Shown here: in pieces, positions 58 to 7,732 of the stretch
How positions within the stretch are numbered: position 1 is the first letter of the stretch
Layout: the number at the start of each line of letters is the position of its first letter
Source of the DNA: a virus
Lineage: Duplodnaviria > Heunggongvirae > Uroviricota > Caudoviricetes
Reading direction: 5' to 3' (one strand)
DNA length: 7,732 nt
IMG/VR virus record: IMGVR_UViG_2724679236_000001
Location: 1-7,732 of that record
Made by a program: the position numbers and the translations under genes
The notes under the pieces: model-generated
What the model was told of the DNA's origin: nothing
Databases searched by the model: none
What the model saw: only the letters and a program-made list of their open reading frames with translations

Positions 58-480
58 TTACTTAACCAATGATGCTGCATATTCAATTAGGAATAACTTA
101 GGTGCAAGCCAAATCTTCAACCATTCGAAATTGAAGGCAATAATTAAAACGCCAATAATTGAGCCAAATATAGGAGCAAATACAGTGCATATATCGTAAT
201 AAAACGAAGATATAAAATACCTATCGTTTGGACATCCATCTAAAGACGTCCATCTCTCGCCATTATTTCTTGCCGTTCTTGCAAAACTAGGAAGTTTCAT
301 GGCCGCAATTAAAAGCAACAACCCAGCCACTTGGAAAAGTGCGCTATGGACAAAACTCCATATTAGCAACTGACGAACAACATCAGGAATCTGTGCTTGA
401 CTAAATGAAACAGCCGCATCTATTCCATTGCTGGCTTTTTGCAGTAGTTCTACGAGAATCTTGTTTGCTTGTTCTTCCAT
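58..480 (-). CDS. Hypothetical membrane protein, 140 aa, in the leftward (PL) early operon
   Basis: Supplied ORF; ATG at 480 preceded by AGGTGA (short spacer); two long hydrophobic segments (ALFQVAGLLLLIAAM, ICTVFAPIFGSIIGVLIIAF) consistent with transmembrane helices; same strand as N and ral. No family recognised. Confidence 0.55.
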   Translation of the reverse strand: MEEQANKILVELLQKASNGIDAAVSFSQAQIPDVVRQLLIWSFVHSALFQVAGLLLLIAAMKLPSFARTARNNGERWTSLDGCPNDRYFISSFYYDICTVFAPIFGSIIGVLIIAFNFEWLKIWLAPKLFLIEYAASLVK

Positions 481-538: not shown

Positions 539-739
539 TCAGGCAGCCTTGTTATTCTGTTTACCAAGTTCTCTGGCAATCATTGCCGTCGTTCGTATTG
601 CCCATTTATCGACATATTTCCCATCCTCCATTACAGGAAACATTTCTTCAGGCTTAACCATGCATTCCGATTGCAGCTTGCATCCATTGCATCGCTTGAA
701 TTGTCCACACCATTGATTCTTATCAATAGTCGTAGTCAT
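539..739 (-). CDS. ral: Ral-like restriction-alleviation protein (66 aa, Cys-rich)
   Basis: 66-aa ORF MTTTIDKNQWCGQFKRCNGCKLQSEC... matches my recollection of lambda Ral in length, sequence and position (leftward of N in the PL operon). Identity is from memory, not from a search. Confidence 0.55.
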   Translation of the reverse strand: MTTTIDKNQWCGQFKRCNGCKLQSECMVKPEEMFPVMEDGKYVDKWAIRTTAMIARELGKQNNKAA

Positions 740-1024: not shown

Positions 1025-1333
1025 TCACCTTGCTGTCAGTTGTTTTGATTTCCGGTAGCCTGCCGCGTAAATGGCTACGTTTGGCAGGCAAATACTTCCA
1101 CTGCATTCGTCGGTATTTTGGTTACGAATGTTGCCGAGTGATATTGCTTTTTCAGAAAGGCTTAAACGCTTTCTCGTGCCTTTCTGAACTGGTTCCTTGC
1201 TGTCTGTTCCGAAGATCGAATCGATGATGTTGCAGATGGAATCACGCTCGATAGCCAGCTTTCTGCGCCGCTCATGACGGCGAGTTTTGGCATTTCCTGC
1301 AAATGTTGATTTTCCGTACACGATTACCGTCAT
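1025..1333 (-). CDS. N: Transcription antitermination protein N, P22 gene 24-like (102 aa)
   Basis: Contains GNAKTRRHERRRKLAIER, the arginine-rich boxB-binding motif of P22 N as I recall it; first gene downstream of PL and nutL. I place the start at ATG 1333 (GAGG 8 nt upstream) rather than the in-frame GTG at 1417 used by the ORF track. Confidence 0.8.
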   Translation of the reverse strand: MTVIVYGKSTFAGNAKTRRHERRRKLAIERDSICNIIDSIFGTDSKEPVQKGTRKRLSLSEKAISLGNIRNQNTDECSGSICLPNVAIYAAGYRKSKQLTAR

Positions 1334-1452
1334 GATGTTTTCCTCATGTGAAATGGCTTTGGTGGTGATGCGCCAGATGTTGATCTTCTGGTTGCTGTCG
1401 TTGCAGCTGCAATTCACATCACCGCCAAACCCATCTCGTTTGGTATCTGTTT

Positions 1453-1487
1453 GCGCTTTGTCAGCGCGCCATCGAAGTTAAAGAGCC
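1453..1487 (-). promoter_or_regulatory. nutL (boxA + boxB), P22-type
   Basis: Minus strand reads GCTCTTTAAC (boxA-like, plus 1477..1486), then GCGCT-GACAA-AGCGC (plus 1453..1467): a 5-bp stem with GACAA pentaloop, matching the P22 boxB as I recall it. Lies in the PL leader upstream of N. Confidence 0.7.
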
Positions 1488-1525
1488 TGCCAGTCTGTTC
1501 CGTTTGGCTGCCAGCGTCCTGCTGA

Positions 1526-1561
1526 TGTGTTTAGTATCACCGCTAGTGGTATGTGTGTCAA
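1526..1561 (-). promoter_or_regulatory. PL promoter (-35 TTGACA, -10 GATACT, 17-bp spacer)
   Basis: Reverse complement of plus 1556..1561 is TTGACA and of 1533..1538 is GATACT; hexamers overlap OL2 and OL1 as in lambda. Confidence 0.8.
1535..1551. promoter_or_regulatory. Operator OL1 (cI/Cro binding site)
   Basis: 17-mer TATCACCGCTAGTGGTA; one central-position difference from the lambda OL1 I remember (TATCACCGCCAGTGGTA). Confidence 0.8.
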
Positions 1562-1575
1562 CACCGCCAGAGATA
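1559..1575. promoter_or_regulatory. Operator OL2
   Basis: 17-mer CAACACCGCCAGAGATA, as in lambda OL2 from memory. Confidence 0.8.
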
Positions 1576-1578
1576 ATT

Positions 1579-1595
1579 TATCACCGCAGATGGTT
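1579..1595. promoter_or_regulatory. Operator OL3
   Basis: 17-mer TATCACCGCAGATGGTT, as in lambda OL3 from memory. Confidence 0.8.
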
Positions 1596-1753
1596 ATCTG
1601 TATGTTTTTTATATGGATTTATTTTTTGCAGGGGTGCATTGTTTGGTAGGTGAGGGATCAGAATTGCACTGTTTAGCAAGTTGTATCTATCAATTTTTCA
1701 ATAAATACAATTGGTTATGGTGTTATTAGGTGTGGGGATCGAGAGGCAAAGAA

Positions 1754-1775
1754 AACCCGGCACTGAGGCCGGGTT
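1754..1775 (-). terminator. Intrinsic terminator ending the cI operon (tImm-like)
   Basis: aaCCCGGC-actgag-GCCGGGtt (stem 1756..1761 / 1768..1773, extendable by two A-T pairs); on the minus strand it is followed by UUUCUUUG and begins 2 nt after the stop of the 1777..2100 gene. Confidence 0.65.
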
Positions 1776-1776
1776 G

Positions 1777-2100
1777 TTATTTATGGAAAAACACTTCAAG
1801 TATTTTGGGGATTGCTGGTATGAGTTGTGAGGATACGACCGCACCTACAACCCATAGAATTATCGAAGTTTTCGCGTCGCTTACGTCTGATTTGGTTGCA
1901 TAATTCGAGCGCATGACAGCCAGGTCGGTTTTCATTTGCTGAACATCTTTTTCGAGTTCTTTCACTCTTTGAAGCACATCATCACCTCCGCCATTGCCGC
2001 CACCATGCCGTGAGTATGCATCATCAGTTGGATAGTGTCCAATTGGGCGAGATATGTTTTGATTTGGACGAAGCTGAGTAACCTTGTTATCTAAACTCAT
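1777..2100 (-). CDS. Hypothetical small membrane protein (107 aa): Gly-rich linker, coiled-coil-like segment, single C-terminal TM helix; distal gene of the cI operon
   Basis: Supplied ORF; ATG at 2100 with AGGA upstream; overlaps the upstream gene by 14 nt; sequence shows HGGGNGGGDD, then VLQRVKELEKDVQQMKTDLAVMRSNY, then hydrophobic IILWVVGAVVSSQLIPAI. Architecture resembles XhlA-like/holin-like small membrane proteins (resemblance only). Confidence 0.6.
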   Translation of the reverse strand: MSLDNKVTQLRPNQNISRPIGHYPTDDAYSRHGGGNGGGDDVLQRVKELEKDVQQMKTDLAVMRSNYATKSDVSDAKTSIILWVVGAVVSSQLIPAIPKILEVFFHK

Positions 2101-2524
2101 CGCGAACTGATCCTGTTATCTTCACGTCAAAAAACGAACTTTTTACATCAATTACTTCGCCTTTCTCAGGATTAACCAGTGATGCTCTAACTTCGAATAT
2201 CCCAGGCTTGATAATTTTCACCCTTGGGAAGTTAATTCTCATAGAAGTTGATACGATGGTTTCTCCATCGTTGGCTTCTGCTACCGTAAAAAACTTATGG
2301 TTGGAGTACAGTTTTGTGTCAATTGGTATCGGTATTTCTTGAGCATTGAAAACCTCAATGCCTATGGAATATTTTTTTGTAGCCTTAAGGCCGATAAAAA
2401 AAGCGCCAAATGACAGATCCACTTCATGGGAGTCTTTATCCATTTCATAGATAAGAACTGGAGTTACGGGGTTGCCTTCATCCATCGCAATCGGAATGAT
2501 ATAAGAAATACGTTCTTTAATCAT
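2087..2524 (-). CDS. Hypothetical protein (145 aa) immediately downstream of cI, in the rexA-equivalent position
   Basis: Supplied ORF; ATG at 2524 is 7 nt after the cI stop on the same strand; region visibly more AT-rich than cI; no recognisable motif. Confidence 0.6.
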   Translation of the reverse strand: MIKERISYIIPIAMDEGNPVTPVLIYEMDKDSHEVDLSFGAFFIGLKATKKYSIGIEVFNAQEIPIPIDTKLYSNHKFFTVAEANDGETIVSTSMRINFPRVKIIKPGIFEVRASLVNPEKGEVIDVKSSFFDVKITGSVRDEFR

Positions 2525-2531
2525 TTACGTG

Positions 2532-3248
<717 letters not shown>

Positions 3249-3336: not shown

Positions 3337-3546
<210 letters not shown>

Positions 3547-4118: not shown

Positions 4119-4933
4119 GCATGAATCTTATGGCTAAGGCCATGAATATAAAGGTTGGCAACCCACTGAGAAAACTGGTTCTGATTAAACTTGCCGATAA
4201 CGCCAATGATAATGGCGAATGCTGGCCTTCATATCAACATGTCGCTGACCAGTGTGAGGTGAGCAGATCGACAGTAAAAAGTCACATTAGGGCACTGGAA
4301 GAGATGGGGCTTTTGAAAAGGGAATTCAGAAGAAAAGGAGAGCTTAACCAGTCAAATGTTTTTTATCTGACATTGGATAATGCACAACAAATCCAACCAG
4401 AATCAGGTGGGGCAGGAGCTGCCCGGGGTGGGGCAGGAGCTGCCCGGGGTGGGGCAGGAGCTGCCCGGGGTGGGGCAGGAGCTGCCCTAGGGGGTGGGGC
4501 AGGAGCTGCCCCCAGAACCTATCACTCTTTTGAACCAGTCAATGAACCTAAAAACATTATGTTCGAACATGTCCGAACAGAGTGTGAAAAAACTCCTGAC
4601 CGTCACGAAGAAACCGACAAGGCATTCGAGGAAATATTCTGGTGTGCAGGCATGCGGAAAGCCGGGAAGAAAAACGCAGCTTCGGCATTCAGAACACAGT
4701 TCAGGGAATGGCGTAAAACTACCAGGGGTACGGCAAGCGAGTTTGCCACGATGCTGGCAGAAGACATCGCATGCAGGAGTGGTAAGCAGTTCGGATTCGA
4801 CAGGTTGTTACCATCTAGCTACCTGAACGGTCAACGCTGGAACGACGAGAAGCCAGAAACTATTCAACCACAATCCAAACCATCATCCGCAATCACCGTA
4901 TCGAAAACTGGCTACGTGTTTTTCGACAGGTGA
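4115..4933 (+). CDS. Replication initiator, O-like (272 aa): N-terminal winged-HTH (HTH_36-like) domain, iteron-encoded Gly/Ala-rich linker, C-terminal domain
   Basis: GGAG RBS 8 nt upstream; N-terminal LRKLVLIKLADNANDNGECWPSYQHVADQCEVSRSTVKSHIRALEEMGLL has the pattern of phage/plasmid replication-initiator HTH domains; internal tandem repeats as in lambda O; precedes a helicase gene. Not lambda O at sequence level. Confidence 0.75.
   Translation: MSMNLMAKAMNIKVGNPLRKLVLIKLADNANDNGECWPSYQHVADQCEVSRSTVKSHIRALEEMGLLKREFRRKGELNQSNVFYLTLDNAQQIQPESGGAGAARGGAGAARGGAGAARGGAGAALGGGAGAAPRTYHSFEPVNEPKNIMFEHVRTECEKTPDRHEETDKAFEEIFWCAGMRKAGKKNAASAFRTQFREWRKTTRGTASEFATMLAEDIACRSGKQFGFDRLLPSSYLNGQRWNDEKPETIQPQSKPSSAITVSKTGYVFFDR
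4406..4513. repeat. Five tandem 21-bp iterons (GGTGGGGCAGGAGCTGCCCGG) inside the initiator gene: candidate origin of replication
   Basis: Units at 4406, 4427, 4448 and 4469, with a fifth at 4493 after a 3-bp insertion; first three identical, last two with 2-bp end changes. Each unit contains the dyad GGGCAG-gag-CTGCCC; in frame the array encodes GGAGAAR repeats; an AT-rich stretch follows (about 4530..4600). Confidence 0.7.
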
Positions 4934-5044: not shown

Positions 5045-6924
5045 TGACTCCAAGTGAACTGAGCGACCTGCTTTGGGCGCAGGTTGACAGGGTGGCTCCG
5101 CACCTGTTGCCAAACGGCAAGAAAGAGGGGCATGAGTGGGTTGCCGGTAACGTCAACGGTGACAAGGGAAACAGCCTTAAGGTCAACCTTAGCGGCAAGA
5201 AAAAATGGGCTGATTTCGCTGAGGGAGACGGCGGTGACATGCTTGATTTGTGGATGGCATGTCGTGGGATTAACCTGCATCAGGCTATGCAGGAAGCGAA
5301 AGCATTTCTCGGTATCAAGGATGACGATCACCATTTCGATGCCAAACGTGAGAAAAAATTCTCCAGACCTGATCGCAAGAAAATCGCCCGCTACGTTACC
5401 AGAACAGAATCCCATCTTGAGTACCTGCAATCGCGTGGCATATCGCCAGAAATCGTAAAGCGCTACGAGGTTGTCAGCGGCAAGGTGTGGAATGGAGAGC
5501 GGGAACTGGATGCTCTGGTGATTCCGTACAAACGCGATGGTGAGTTGTTGCAGGTCAAGCGAATCAGCACTGAGCGCCCGGACGGGAAGAAAGTCATTAT
5601 GGCAGAAGGTGATTGCGAACCTTGTCTGTTCGGATGGCAGGCTCTGGACGCTGGCGTGAGGGCGGTTGTACTTTGCGAAGGCGAAATTGATTGTATGAGC
5701 TATGCGCAATACGGCATCTCGGCGTTATCCGTGCCGTTTGGTGGCGGGAAAGGCGCTAAGCAACAGTGGATTGAGTTTGAGTATCACAACCTCGACAGGT
5801 TTGAGGAAATATTCATCTCGATGGACGTTGATGATGTTGGTCGTGAAGCCGCAAGGGAAATCGCAAGCCGACTCGGTGAACATCGTTGCCGTCTTGTTAC
5901 TCTGCCGTACAAAGACATCAACGAATGCCTGATGAACGGTGTTACCGAGGATGAAATCTGGCAGTACATCGGCACGGCATCCTACTTCGATCCTGAAGAA
6001 CTCTACAGCGCGCGAGAGTTTTACCAGGACACTATCAACGCTTTCTACGGCAAGCAGCAGTATCTGTTTAATCCACCGTGGGAATCTCTGGCAGATAAAT
6101 TCCAGTTCCGTGAGGCAGAGTTGACGCTGGTCAATGGTGTGAACGGTCACGGAAAAACGGAGGTTGTCGGGCATATGGCACTTGAGGCAATGCGTCAGGG
6201 TGTGAAGACATGCATCGCGTCACTTGAGCTGAAGCCTGGTATTCTCCTTAAGCGCCTTACCCGTCAGGCGACGTGCTGCAAGATGCCGCCAGTGCTGGAA
6301 ATTGACTCTGCATTTAAATTTTATGACGAAAGACTTTGGGTGTTTGGCCTGACCGGAACGGCGAAAGCCGACAGGCTGATCGAAATATTCGACTACGCTC
6401 GCCGCCGATACGGGATCCAGTTATTCATCATCGACAGCCTGATGAAATGTGGCATAGGCGACGATGACTATAACGGGCAGAAGGCGTTTGTTGACTCGAT
6501 TTGCGACTTCAAAAACAAAACAAACTCCCACGTCATTCTCGTTACTCACTCGCGAAAAGGAGACAGCGAAGAAAAACCAACCGGGAAAATGGACGTAAAA
6601 GGCTCTGGAGCGATAACAGACCTGACAGACAACCTTTTTATCATCTGGCGTAACAAGGCTCGCGAGAGAGCGTTACAGAGAGTTCAGAGTGGTGAAAAGA
6701 TGTCAGAGAAGGACGAACAGCTACTGGCATCTCCTGCATCTGTTTTGATGCTTGAAAAACAACGTAACGGCGAAGGTTGGGAAGGTGGTGTCCCGTTGTT
6801 CCTTGACGAGCAATCGCACCAGTTCCTGCAACTTGAATCAGGATCGCCATATAGCTACATCGCCAATATGCCGAAATCGGAATATGACGAGGCGTGGCGA
6901 CAGGAAAACGTGACGGAGTATTAA
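5044..6924 (+). CDS. Bifunctional replicative primase-helicase (626 aa): toprim primase domain fused to DnaB-like (RecA-fold) helicase domain
   Basis: Toprim motifs CEGEID (5674..5691) and DVDDVG (5824..5841); Walker A GVNGHGKT (6136..6159); Walker B-like LFIIDS; DnaB-like KGSGAITDLTDNLFII and EKQRNG. N-terminus has the spacing of a DnaG zinc ribbon but without the cysteines. Confidence 0.8.
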   Translation: MTPSELSDLLWAQVDRVAPHLLPNGKKEGHEWVAGNVNGDKGNSLKVNLSGKKKWADFAEGDGGDMLDLWMACRGINLHQAMQEAKAFLGIKDDDHHFDAKREKKFSRPDRKKIARYVTRTESHLEYLQSRGISPEIVKRYEVVSGKVWNGERELDALVIPYKRDGELLQVKRISTERPDGKKVIMAEGDCEPCLFGWQALDAGVRAVVLCEGEIDCMSYAQYGISALSVPFGGGKGAKQQWIEFEYHNLDRFEEIFISMDVDDVGREAAREIASRLGEHRCRLVTLPYKDINECLMNGVTEDEIWQYIGTASYFDPEELYSAREFYQDTINAFYGKQQYLFNPPWESLADKFQFREAELTLVNGVNGHGKTEVVGHMALEAMRQGVKTCIASLELKPGILLKRLTRQATCCKMPPVLEIDSAFKFYDERLWVFGLTGTAKADRLIEIFDYARRRYGIQLFIIDSLMKCGIGDDDYNGQKAFVDSICDFKNKTNSHVILVTHSRKGDSEEKPTGKMDVKGSGAITDLTDNLFIIWRNKARERALQRVQSGEKMSEKDEQLLASPASVLMLEKQRNGEGWEGGVPLFLDEQSHQFLQLESGSPYSYIANMPKSEYDEAWRQENVTEY

Positions 6925-7194
6925 ATGAATAAAAAACAATTAGCCATTCTCGAAAAGGCATGGGATGCACAAATATCATGCGCTTTGAAAGAACAGGCAC
7001 TACCAATAATCCAGACCAAATCGAAAATAGCCAGGCAGTTATGCGATGGCGGATTCCTGAACGAAGTTGAGATTACGCGCCAGATGGTAACGTTTAAAGG
7101 GTATGAGATAAATCATCATGGTATAGCGGCGTATTGCTCCCATCTTCCTAATGACGTTGACATTGATGAAATGGAAAGGGAGATGAAGCAATGA
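6925..7194 (+). CDS. Hypothetical protein (89 aa) in the ren-equivalent position
   Basis: Supplied ORF; ATG immediately after the helicase stop, GGAG 8 nt upstream; no similarity to lambda Ren recognised. Confidence 0.55.
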   Translation: MNKKQLAILEKAWDAQISCALKEQALPIIQTKSKIARQLCDGGFLNEVEITRQMVTFKGYEINHHGIAAYCSHLPNDVDIDEMEREMKQ

Positions 7195-7220
7195 CCATCT
7201 ACATCACTGAGCTAATAACA

Positions 7221-7250
7221 GGTCTGCAGGTAATCGCAGGCCTTTTTATT
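7221..7250 (+). terminator. Putative intrinsic terminator (tR2-position)
   Basis: GGTCTGC-aggtaatc-GCAGGCC (7-bp stem with one G-U pair) followed by TTTTTATTT; lies between the replication genes and the nin region, where lambda has tR2. Confidence 0.45.
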
Positions 7251-7266
7251 TGGGGGAGAGTAAATC

Positions 7267-7473
7267 GTGGTTGAGTTGATTTTCTCTGCATTGAGGCTTC
7301 TCGGTGCTATGTGGATGGTGGCGACGTTCATTGTAGTTGCTGGCTGTTTTGTCCGGTTGGTAGGCGAAGGTAAAGACCTGGTTGGTGTGCTTTTCGGTAG
7401 CATTTTCCTGTGGGTGATTATCGGTGTTATGCCTGTTGTCGTAGCAAAAGTGGCGTGGCGTTTTGTGAGTTGA
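7267..7473 (+). CDS. Small hydrophobic protein (68 aa, two predicted TM helices)
   Basis: GTG start at 7267 with strong SD GGGGGAGAG 6 nt upstream; MVELIFSALRLLGAMWMVATFIVVAGCFV and LVGVLFGSIFLWVIIGVMPVVVA form two hydrophobic helices separated by a short polar turn; stop overlaps the ninB RBS. Confidence 0.55.
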   Translation: MVELIFSALRLLGAMWMVATFIVVAGCFVRLVGEGKDLVGVLFGSIFLWVIIGVMPVVVAKVAWRFVS

Positions 7474-7480
7474 GGTAACG

Positions 7481-7732
7481 ATGAAGCAAATATACATGCT
7501 TCGCAACGAAGCAATCAGAAACAATGCCATAGACGCAATACTCTCACTTTCGATCGACGACAAGTCACCTCACGAAGTCCACATTAAAGAACCAAAGCGG
7601 AGCAATCCTCAAAACCGCCTTATGTGGGCGTTATTGCAGGACGTATCGCGTCAGGTGCTTTGGCATGGACAGAGACTTGCGCCGGAGGACTGGAAAGACC
7701 TGTTCACTGCCCTGTGGCTTAAGACCAAAAAA
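7481..7732 (+). CDS. ninB: NinB/Orf-family recombination protein, 5' partial (runs off the window)
   Basis: Hand translation MKQIYMLRNEAIRNNAIDAILSLSIDDKSPHEVHIKEPKRSNPQNRLMWALLQDVSRQVLWHGQRLAPEDWKDLFTALWLKTKK shares the QNR-L-W-DVSRQV-WHG core with lambda NinB as I recall it; GAGG RBS 7 nt upstream. Absent from the ORF track because no stop lies in the window. Confidence 0.75.
   Translation, partial: MKQIYMLRNEAIRNNAIDAILSLSIDDKSPHEVHIKEPKRSNPQNRLMWALLQDVSRQVLWHGQRLAPEDWKDLFTALWLKTKK

Follow-up and report, generated by a model that had tools for sequence, protein, structure and literature searches.

What lies between the last replication gene and ninB in this lambdoid phage, and how are the small genes found there expressed? 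The window, by which is meant the whole stretch of 7,732 nucleotides that was analysed, comes from the immunity and early-right part of a lambdoid phage or prophage with a mosaic genome (Table 1). Among phage records it is nearest to Stx2a-converting phages, each of which covers no more than 56% of it. The primase-helicase is the final gene of the replication module, and its TAA stop abuts the ATG of ORF89. Two small genes separated by a hairpin had been proposed for the interval between the replication module and ninB (the original prediction), and ORF89, the hairpin and ORF68 were all located as described. The further proposal that both genes are functionally uncharacterised agrees with the databases, in which every name given to them is "hypothetical protein". 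Searches of ORF89, ORF68 and ninA against Pfam, NCBIfam and PADLOC returned nothing above threshold; among the PADLOC defence HMMs there was no match for ORF68 or ninA and a sub-threshold one (E = 0.012) for ORF89.

The interval may best be read as a standard lambdoid junction, in which the last replication gene is followed by a gene in the ren slot, by ninA with tR2, by variable first nin genes and finally by ninB. ORF89 would be the occupant of the ren slot and ORF68 a cargo gene behind tR2, with a guess at a membrane role attached to the latter. Taken as a whole, this explanation seems on balance to be the right one, if not by much. Its established part comprises the reality and conservation of the genes, the architecture of the junction, the identity of tR2 and the predicted folds.

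Table 1. Features of the analysed window, with positions counted from its first nucleotide.
Feature	Position	Strand	Evidence or details
cI, lambda-like	2532-3245	minus	
cro	3346-3546		
cII-like gene; O-like initiator with 21-bp iterons	within window		
Primase-helicase, Toprim/DnaB-type, 626 aa	5044..6924	+	Pfam Toprim_2, AAA_25, DnaB_C; phrog_239 DNA primase/helicase, E = 1.5e-171
ORF89, 89 aa, acidic tail	6925..7194	+	ATG 6925, TGA 7192-7194
ninA mini-ORF, 27 aa, MTIYITELITGLQVIAGLFIWGRVNRG	7191..7274	+	phrog_5907, E = 1.9e-17
tR2 intrinsic terminator (predicted), stem-loop AGGTCTGC-AGGTAATC-GCAGGCCT then T-run	7220..7253	+	Terminator scan; likeness to lambda tR2
Shine-Dalgarno GGGGGAGAG, serves ORF68 here	7252..7260	+	Direct reading of sequence
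ORF68, 68 aa, two-TM (predicted), opens nin region here	7267..7473	+	GTG 7267, TGA 7471-7473
ninB RBS GAGG (7472-7475) and ninB 5' part, ATG 7481, incomplete at window end	7472..7732	+	Pfam NinB, E = 4.5e-28; phrog_72

The terminator-like hairpin noted between the two genes is present at 7220-7243 and is followed by a T-run. Judged by sequence, the hairpin together with the TTTTTATTT that follows it is the tR2 terminator of lambda. The terminator scan returned a GC-rich stem-loop with a U-tract, the alignment showed it to be homologous to lambda tR2 in both sequence and position, and terminator activity is predicted. The stretch running from the ATGA at 7191 to the end of GGGGGAGAG at 7260 is near-identical to the segment of lambda that separates the end of ren from the start of ninB, and it also matches features annotated as "ninA" in HK620, HK630 and SPN9CC and as "tR2" in HK620. 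At an identity of at least 90%, the 79-nt ninA/tR2 linker was found in 388 phage records, where its upstream neighbours are ren, DnaB-like helicases, primase-helicases or ORF89. Since the linker is near-identical to lambda and to annotated tR2, and is widespread at this position, the hairpin can be assigned to tR2.

The open reading frame that spans tR2 is ninA, which had been missed in the original prediction. NinA mini-ORFs are 26-29 codons long, begin at an ATGA shared with the preceding gene and span tR2, and the reading frame in the window has all of these features. Its ATG shares the ATGA with the stop of ORF89, and its TGA overlaps the GTG of ORF68 (GTGGTTGA). The first of these overlaps occurs in all 87 copies compared and the second wherever ORF68 comes next; lambda shows a like arrangement of the stop of ninA and the ATG of ninB. 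Overlaps of the ATGA type are typical of nin regions (PMC8022706). A translation start for NinA is known to exist, with tR2 lying inside that ORF, and termination at tR2 is suppressed by ribosomes near it (PMC4824070).

ORF68 had been credited with a strong Shine-Dalgarno sequence of its own, and this was borne out only in part. GGGGGAGAG does lie upstream of the GTG, with its GGAG core 8 nt 5' of that codon, but it belongs to the conserved sequence 3' of tR2, which in lambda precedes and serves ninB. It is invariant in an alignment of lambda, HK620, SPN9CC, HK022 and Huey. The supposed terminator and strong RBS together make up the canonical ninA/tR2/ninB-SD linker of lambda. Relative to lambda, the same alignment places ORF68 exactly between tR2/SD and ninB, which upholds the earlier view of ORF68 as an insertion at a module boundary, as in lambda tR2/SD leads straight to ninB. 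At its other end, the TGA of ORF68 shares bases with the GAGG 5 nt 5' of the ninB ATG, just as had been suggested. With its stop in the ninB RBS and its start in the ninA stop, ORF68 is integrated in the nin operon, again as expected. Compared with the lambda ren-ninA/tR2-ninB junction, then, the ninA mini-ORF, the tR2 hairpin with its T-run and GGGGGAGAG are nearly identical, the ATGA-type overlaps are shared and ninB lies downstream in both; the window differs in having ORF89 in place of ren, a 207-bp ORF68 between the SD and ninB, and a tR2 stem with a G.U wobble.

Across the loci compared, ORF68 travels with tR2 and is not tied to ORF89 or to ninB. The exact tR2 core lies upstream of ORF68 in 80 of the 86 loci, while ORF89 is found upstream in only six. 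NinB adjoins ORF68 through the same +8 nt junction in around 35 of the 86, with 290-1100 nt of other small genes separating the two elsewhere. The order in H-19B is ren-tR2-ORF68, and HK022, from which the 5' part of ninA is absent, has kept tR2, the SD and ORF68. In O157 Stx2 prophages the slot is filled by another hypothetical gene, a DUF7301 gene and Lar. The DUF7301 name, which E. coli annotations use in this region, was also considered; it belongs to a different gene, which does not occur in the window. The genes of nin regions are tightly packed, with ATGA overlaps, and non-essential (PMC8022706; PMC5630979), and the region has been described as a gene pool with 30-50 non-essential members, around ten of which are carried by any one phage (PMC5630979). 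The modularity of ORF68 matches this published gene-pool view, and ORF68 may be regarded as one alternative cargo gene of the slot just 3' of tR2, having taken over the SD of ninB. Literature searches on this slot yielded general descriptions of the nin region and no characterised gene.

That ORF68 is a real gene is supported by its family and by its conservation. It aligns over residues 1-68 with positions 1-68 of the 68-position profile of phrog_1165 (E = 5.1e-35), and a tblastn search recovered it from 107 phage records, in each of which the copy is hypothetical or unannotated. Identities range from 92-97% in HK022, HK75, HK630 and mEpX1 (95-97% for the HK022 and mEpX1 copies) through 88% in many Stx2a phages and 58% in HK620 to 41-43% in P22-like Salmonella phages. 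Beside these 68-aa hypothetical members of phrog_1165, ORF68 shows nothing materially different. On the bacterial side, a cluster of 340 E. coli sequences matches it at 99% identity, and 450 of the 5426 complete E. coli genomes contain it under the PGAP label "hypothetical protein". A total of 193-239 protein clusters were recovered; nearly all are exactly 68 residues long, and none is named or contains a Pfam domain. At the position of the tblastn match, several of the phage records show ninA; identity of ORF68 with NinA was considered on this ground and rejected, as the annotated ninA is a separate 27-codon ORF across tR2 that merely overlaps the ORF68 start.

More distant relatives were also found. 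An exhaustive phmmer (HMMER) search of 1.84 billion representative proteins returned 16 clusters, five of which are homologues of 63-68 aa at 30-38% identity, and these retain K/R10, W16, G35, D37, F47, W49, G53, P56, K61 and W64. Two of the remote homologues lie among arrays of small early-type genes in other phage contigs. Together with this search, two large-database searches, one with the single ORF68 sequence and one with a profile, gave only unnamed homologues of 63-68 aa. Family and PDB-profile searches found no homology of ORF68 or ORF89 to any characterised protein. One spurious match, a repetitive protein of 375 aa, also appeared in the ORF68 searches.

It might be argued that ORF68 encodes no functional protein and that its frame is kept because a recombination linker or a regulatory RNA is conserved at the DNA level. 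The HK022, HK620 and H-19B records carry no annotation for the gene, and its 3' third is nucleotide-identical between copies that have diverged elsewhere. Pairwise dN/dS is around 0.33-0.36, with variation lowest at the second codon position; at about 0.35 the ratio is only moderately low and indicates no more than moderate constraint. The H-19B copy, which was fetched separately and stands outside the 86, carries an in-frame stop at codon 15, so ORF68 appears to be dispensable. Against these points, loss of the frame in relatives had been named as the observation that would speak against a functional gene, and the frame is intact over 68 codons in each of the 86 fully read copies, the disrupted H-19B copy not being one of them. 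The position of the start is likewise constant in 86 of 86, the codon being GTG except for ATG in SPN9CC. Homologues at 30-38% identity in unrelated phage contexts share the motif set, and the AlphaFold2 (AF2) confidence is high. Nor was there any sign of a functional RNA: folding of 7185-7285 showed no extra stability over shuffled controls, the tR2 stem aside, an Rfam search of the region found no match, and no family was found for the minus-strand ORFs. We therefore regard conservation for DNA or RNA alone as highly improbable and treat ORF68 as a protein-coding gene. An antisense explanation was also considered and set aside, the minus-strand ORFs at 7212-7563 being without family.

The description of ORF68 as almost entirely two hydrophobic helices holds well. 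Hydropathy analysis gave two putative transmembrane segments, at residues 11-29 (Kyte-Doolittle 2.31) and 41-59 (2.62), and the AF2 model is a helical hairpin with helices at 2-33 and 38-67 (pLDDT 91). A conserved basic residue before TM1, K61 and R65 after TM2 and an acidic loop with a G-x-D motif suggest an N-in/C-in topology. We infer an inner-membrane hairpin with both termini inside and a short periplasmic loop that would bear the conserved G-x-D motif. Conserved residues in TM2 form a stripe (F43, F47, V50, G53, V57, K61 and W64), and conservation is periodic on one helical face with a marginal shuffle p of around 0.03 from eight sequences. Such a pattern may reflect a specific interface for helix packing.

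Class II holins such as the pinholin S21-68, of about 68 aa and with two transmembrane helices, come to mind at this point, and a holin, antiholin or pinholin-like protein of lysis timing would agree with ORF68 in length, in number of transmembrane helices (two within some 65-95 aa) and in the AF2 hairpin. The agreement ends there. ORF68 has no charged C-terminal domain of the S21-68 type, the highly charged basic tail being absent and only K61 and R65 falling in the last eight residues; it has no dual-start motif, and it matches no Pfam or PHROG holin family. Its place in all loci is between tR2 and ninB, within the early nin region, and not in a lysis cassette. A role in lysis timing therefore appears very unlikely, and a small membrane protein of the early operon is the preferred reading.

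How such a protein would be expressed bears on the proposal that ORF68 is a moron, that is, an independent transcription unit inserted between genes (PMC3594210). Insertion between genes that are adjacent in related phages does apply to ORF68, as lambda tR2/SD runs directly into ninB. The expression signals expected of a moron are missing, and this part of the original prediction was not sustained. A sigma-70 consensus scan found no promoter-like site at 7195-7266, between ORF89 and ORF68; the sole promoter-like site in 6700-7732 falls inside ORF89, and a count of one is the chance expectation. Over 7473-7732 the terminator scan found no plus-strand terminator-like site after ORF68. The GC content of ORF68 (0.488) is not anomalous beside that of ninB (0.48) and of the window (0.457), and the SD is that of lambda ninB. 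With no promoter, downstream terminator or GC anomaly of their own, neither ORF68 nor ORF89 is a classical moron.

A prophage-expressed accessory gene, independently transcribed and acting as a membrane toxin or a superinfection-exclusion factor to the benefit of the lysogen, would nonetheless fit several properties of ORF68. The protein is small, very hydrophobic and of the two-TM type, its slot is highly variable and located at a module boundary, and it is present in only around 28% of phages with the tR2 linker (107 against 388 records). Precedents are P22 SieA and HK97 gp15, prophage-expressed membrane exclusion proteins (PMC10883804; PMC3594210), which are morons, whereas ORF68 lies behind tR2 in an early operon. 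Between tR2 and the start of ORF68, as well as 3' of the gene, the scans found no promoter and no terminator, respectively; tR2 itself is 14 nt 5' of the start, which lies in the ninA stop and is preceded by the ancestral ninB SD. As base composition is not deviant and PADLOC gave no match, expression from the prophage for the benefit of the lysogen is considered improbable.

ORF68 and ORF89 are more readily seen as genes of the delayed-early class, probably N-dependent, with ORF68 probably embedded in the pR delayed-early operon and translationally coupled there. Given the lack of an own promoter and the position behind tR2, ORF68 would be made from the pR transcript only upon N antitermination or read-through of tR2. 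Its product would thus appear early in infection and in lytic growth, and not in the lysogen. Translation would use the SD that in lambda belongs to ninB, with the start overlapping the ninA stop, and probably in part by coupling to ninA. HK022, where tR2, the SD and ORF68 persist although the 5' part of ninA is gone, suggests that this coupling is not obligatory.

As to function, the best guess is that ORF68 serves as a small inner-membrane modulator or exclusion factor in lytic growth, with unregulated pore-forming toxicity being less likely. Through the conserved face of TM2 it may contact, helix to helix, a host inner-membrane protein or itself, and such contact would alter membrane function during the lytic cycle, exclusion of secondary DNA injection being one example. 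This combination of a membrane partner with exclusion is speculative, draws on analogy with other phage proteins, and is offered as a tentative possibility. T4 Imm, like P22 SieA and HK97 gp15, is a small phage-encoded inner-membrane protein; ORF68 resembles the three in size and predicted membrane location only and has no sequence or family relationship to them. T4 Imm is made early in lytic infection. A wider proposal, which we consider rather doubtful, is that phrog_1165 as a whole may be a widespread family of inner-membrane hairpins of 63-68 aa, made early in the lytic cycle of lambdoid and other enterobacterial phages and acting on a specific target, whether by a T4 Imm-like block of injection or by modulation of FtsH/HflKC or of a transporter. 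Such a family, if it exists, would constitute a new class of lytic-phase membrane effector whose synthesis reports read-through of tR2.

Both ORFs are already catalogued hypothetical families in known variable slots and not a new kind of element. The present analysis is mainly corrective, the junction being textbook lambda with nothing structurally or organisationally surprising. Should ORF68 prove to have a defined membrane target, a gene that is present in around 8% of complete E. coli genomes as well as in many Stx2a-converting, HK022-like and P22-like phages would gain a function, and a lytic-phase membrane effector would be added to the poorly understood gene pool of the nin region.

ORF89, the other small gene, matches phrog_2239 over its full length (1-89 of 89, E = 3.5e-62). 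A total of 115 phage records carry it at 93-98% identity, in each case immediately behind a helicase gene, the helicases being of several types, and it occurs in 219 of 5426 E. coli genomes. Only 25 protein clusters were recovered, all of them from Enterobacterales and all named hypothetical. The phrog_2239 members ORF30 of phage ST104 and vb_24B_14 of phage 24B, 93-98% identical and in the same post-helicase position, are not materially different from it. ORF89 had been called unrelated to the ren product of lambda, and the comparison agrees: hhalign gave a probability of 0.3% (E = 0.2), and homology to Ren is thereby not supported.

The AF2 model of ORF89, built on an alignment of 16 sequences (pLDDT 92), has a helix-helix-beta-hairpin-helix topology and is predicted to be a winged-helix fold with an acidic C-terminal helix. 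In the model the helices and the beta-hairpin wing follow the winged-helix arrangement (H-H-H-beta hairpin) and are superposable on solved MarR/PadR-like proteins. Foldseek matches to winged-helix proteins are weak (E around 0.01), and one of them is the replication terminator protein RTP. The 50 matches listed against BFVD viral structures were generic winged-helix proteins only, with Ren absent, and a PDB sequence-profile search with ORF89 found no significant match. ORF89 may thus be an alternative occupant of the ren slot that, with the predicted fold as the pointer, probably binds DNA or a replication or transcription protein.

Rather than a generic DNA-binding protein, ORF89 could be a functional analogue of Ren, giving Rex-type exclusion protection, or a regulator of the adjacent helicase. 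It shares the position of ren between the last replication gene and ninA/tR2, is near Ren in size (89 against 96 aa) and is invariably placed next to helicase genes of several types; the appearance of RTP among the winged-helix matches points the same way. The lack of sequence similarity to Ren and the generic character of the fold matches, which are winged-helix regulators, speak against an analogue of Ren, and we consider this more specific assignment unlikely; a winged-helix protein binding DNA or a replication or transcription protein is preferred for ORF89.

A minor feature of the junction concerns tR2 itself. Two positions differ between the hairpins of lambda and the window. Relative to the version carried by 62 of the 87 loci, a C to T change in the window turns a G-C pair of the stem into the G.U wobble and is accompanied by one change in the loop, and this pair of changes is unique to the window among the 87 copies compared.

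In the O157-type Stx2 prophages compared (L089, L002 and L003), the slot between the lambda terminator hairpin tR2 and ninB was found without ORF68, the gene for the 68-aa two-TM predicted protein, and with other genes in its place, which marks the slot as a hot spot at which small genes alternate. The ninA mini-ORF that spans tR2 overlaps its neighbours on both sides. Its ATG overlaps the upstream stop codon (ATGA) in all 87 ninA/tR2 copies compared, regardless of the upstream gene, and its own stop overlaps the ORF68 start at every locus where ORF68 comes next and, in lambda, the ninB start. Termination at tR2 could be modulated by translation across ninA (cf. PMC4824070). The tR2 of the window carries a C to T change in the stem, converting a G-C pair to G.U, and a T to A change in the loop, a combination found in no other of the 87 copies. 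Together, these changes could weaken termination.

Among the relatives of ORF68, the stop in the H-19B copy either marks a pseudogene or stems from an error in the sequence, which is an old one. The ORF68 match in the Stx1a phage 11KH263 shows the same level of identity as that of H-19B, and the two may have the stop in common. Versions of 93-94 aa are also present in Salmonella (P0168-P0170); these and the 104-aa homologue are probably fusions or extended forms.

Features located in the window and in related loci
Feature	Location	Strand	Remark
Hydrophobic predicted protein, 140 aa	window 58-480	-	phrog_3054, no assigned role
Ral restriction-alleviation homologue	window 539-739	-	
N-like antiterminator	window 1025-1417	-	
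Two overlapping ORFs	window 1777-2524	-	directly downstream of cI
Tandem array, 21-bp unit, 4.9 copies	window 4406-4511		within O-like gene; GGTGGGGCAGGAGCTGCCCGG
ninA mini-ORF, 27 codons	window 7191-7274	+	spans tR2
tR2 hairpin	window 7220-7243		
92-aa hypothetical gene, DUF7301 gene, Lar	L089 (E. coli 95NR1) 1466-2339		tR2-ninB slot; also L002, L003
H-19B copy of ORF68	L090 (AF034975.3) 1495-1701		in-frame stop, codon 15 (GV*W)
ORF68 homologue annotated longer, 104 aa	L091 (Salmonella phage 146851_sal5) 1501-1815		

The hydrophobic 140-aa protein, the Ral homologue and the N-like antiterminator are encoded on the pL side. The two ORFs downstream of cI occupy the slot held by rexA/rexB in lambda. 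One encodes 145 aa (phrog_5893) and the other 107 aa (phrog_6324) with a C-terminal hydrophobic segment; neither had a match in Pfam or PADLOC. Together they are a candidate for a two-gene cassette, accessory or defensive in role and expressed from the prophage. The array in the O-like gene, which encodes the repeated peptide GGAGAAR, probably represents the origin iterons.
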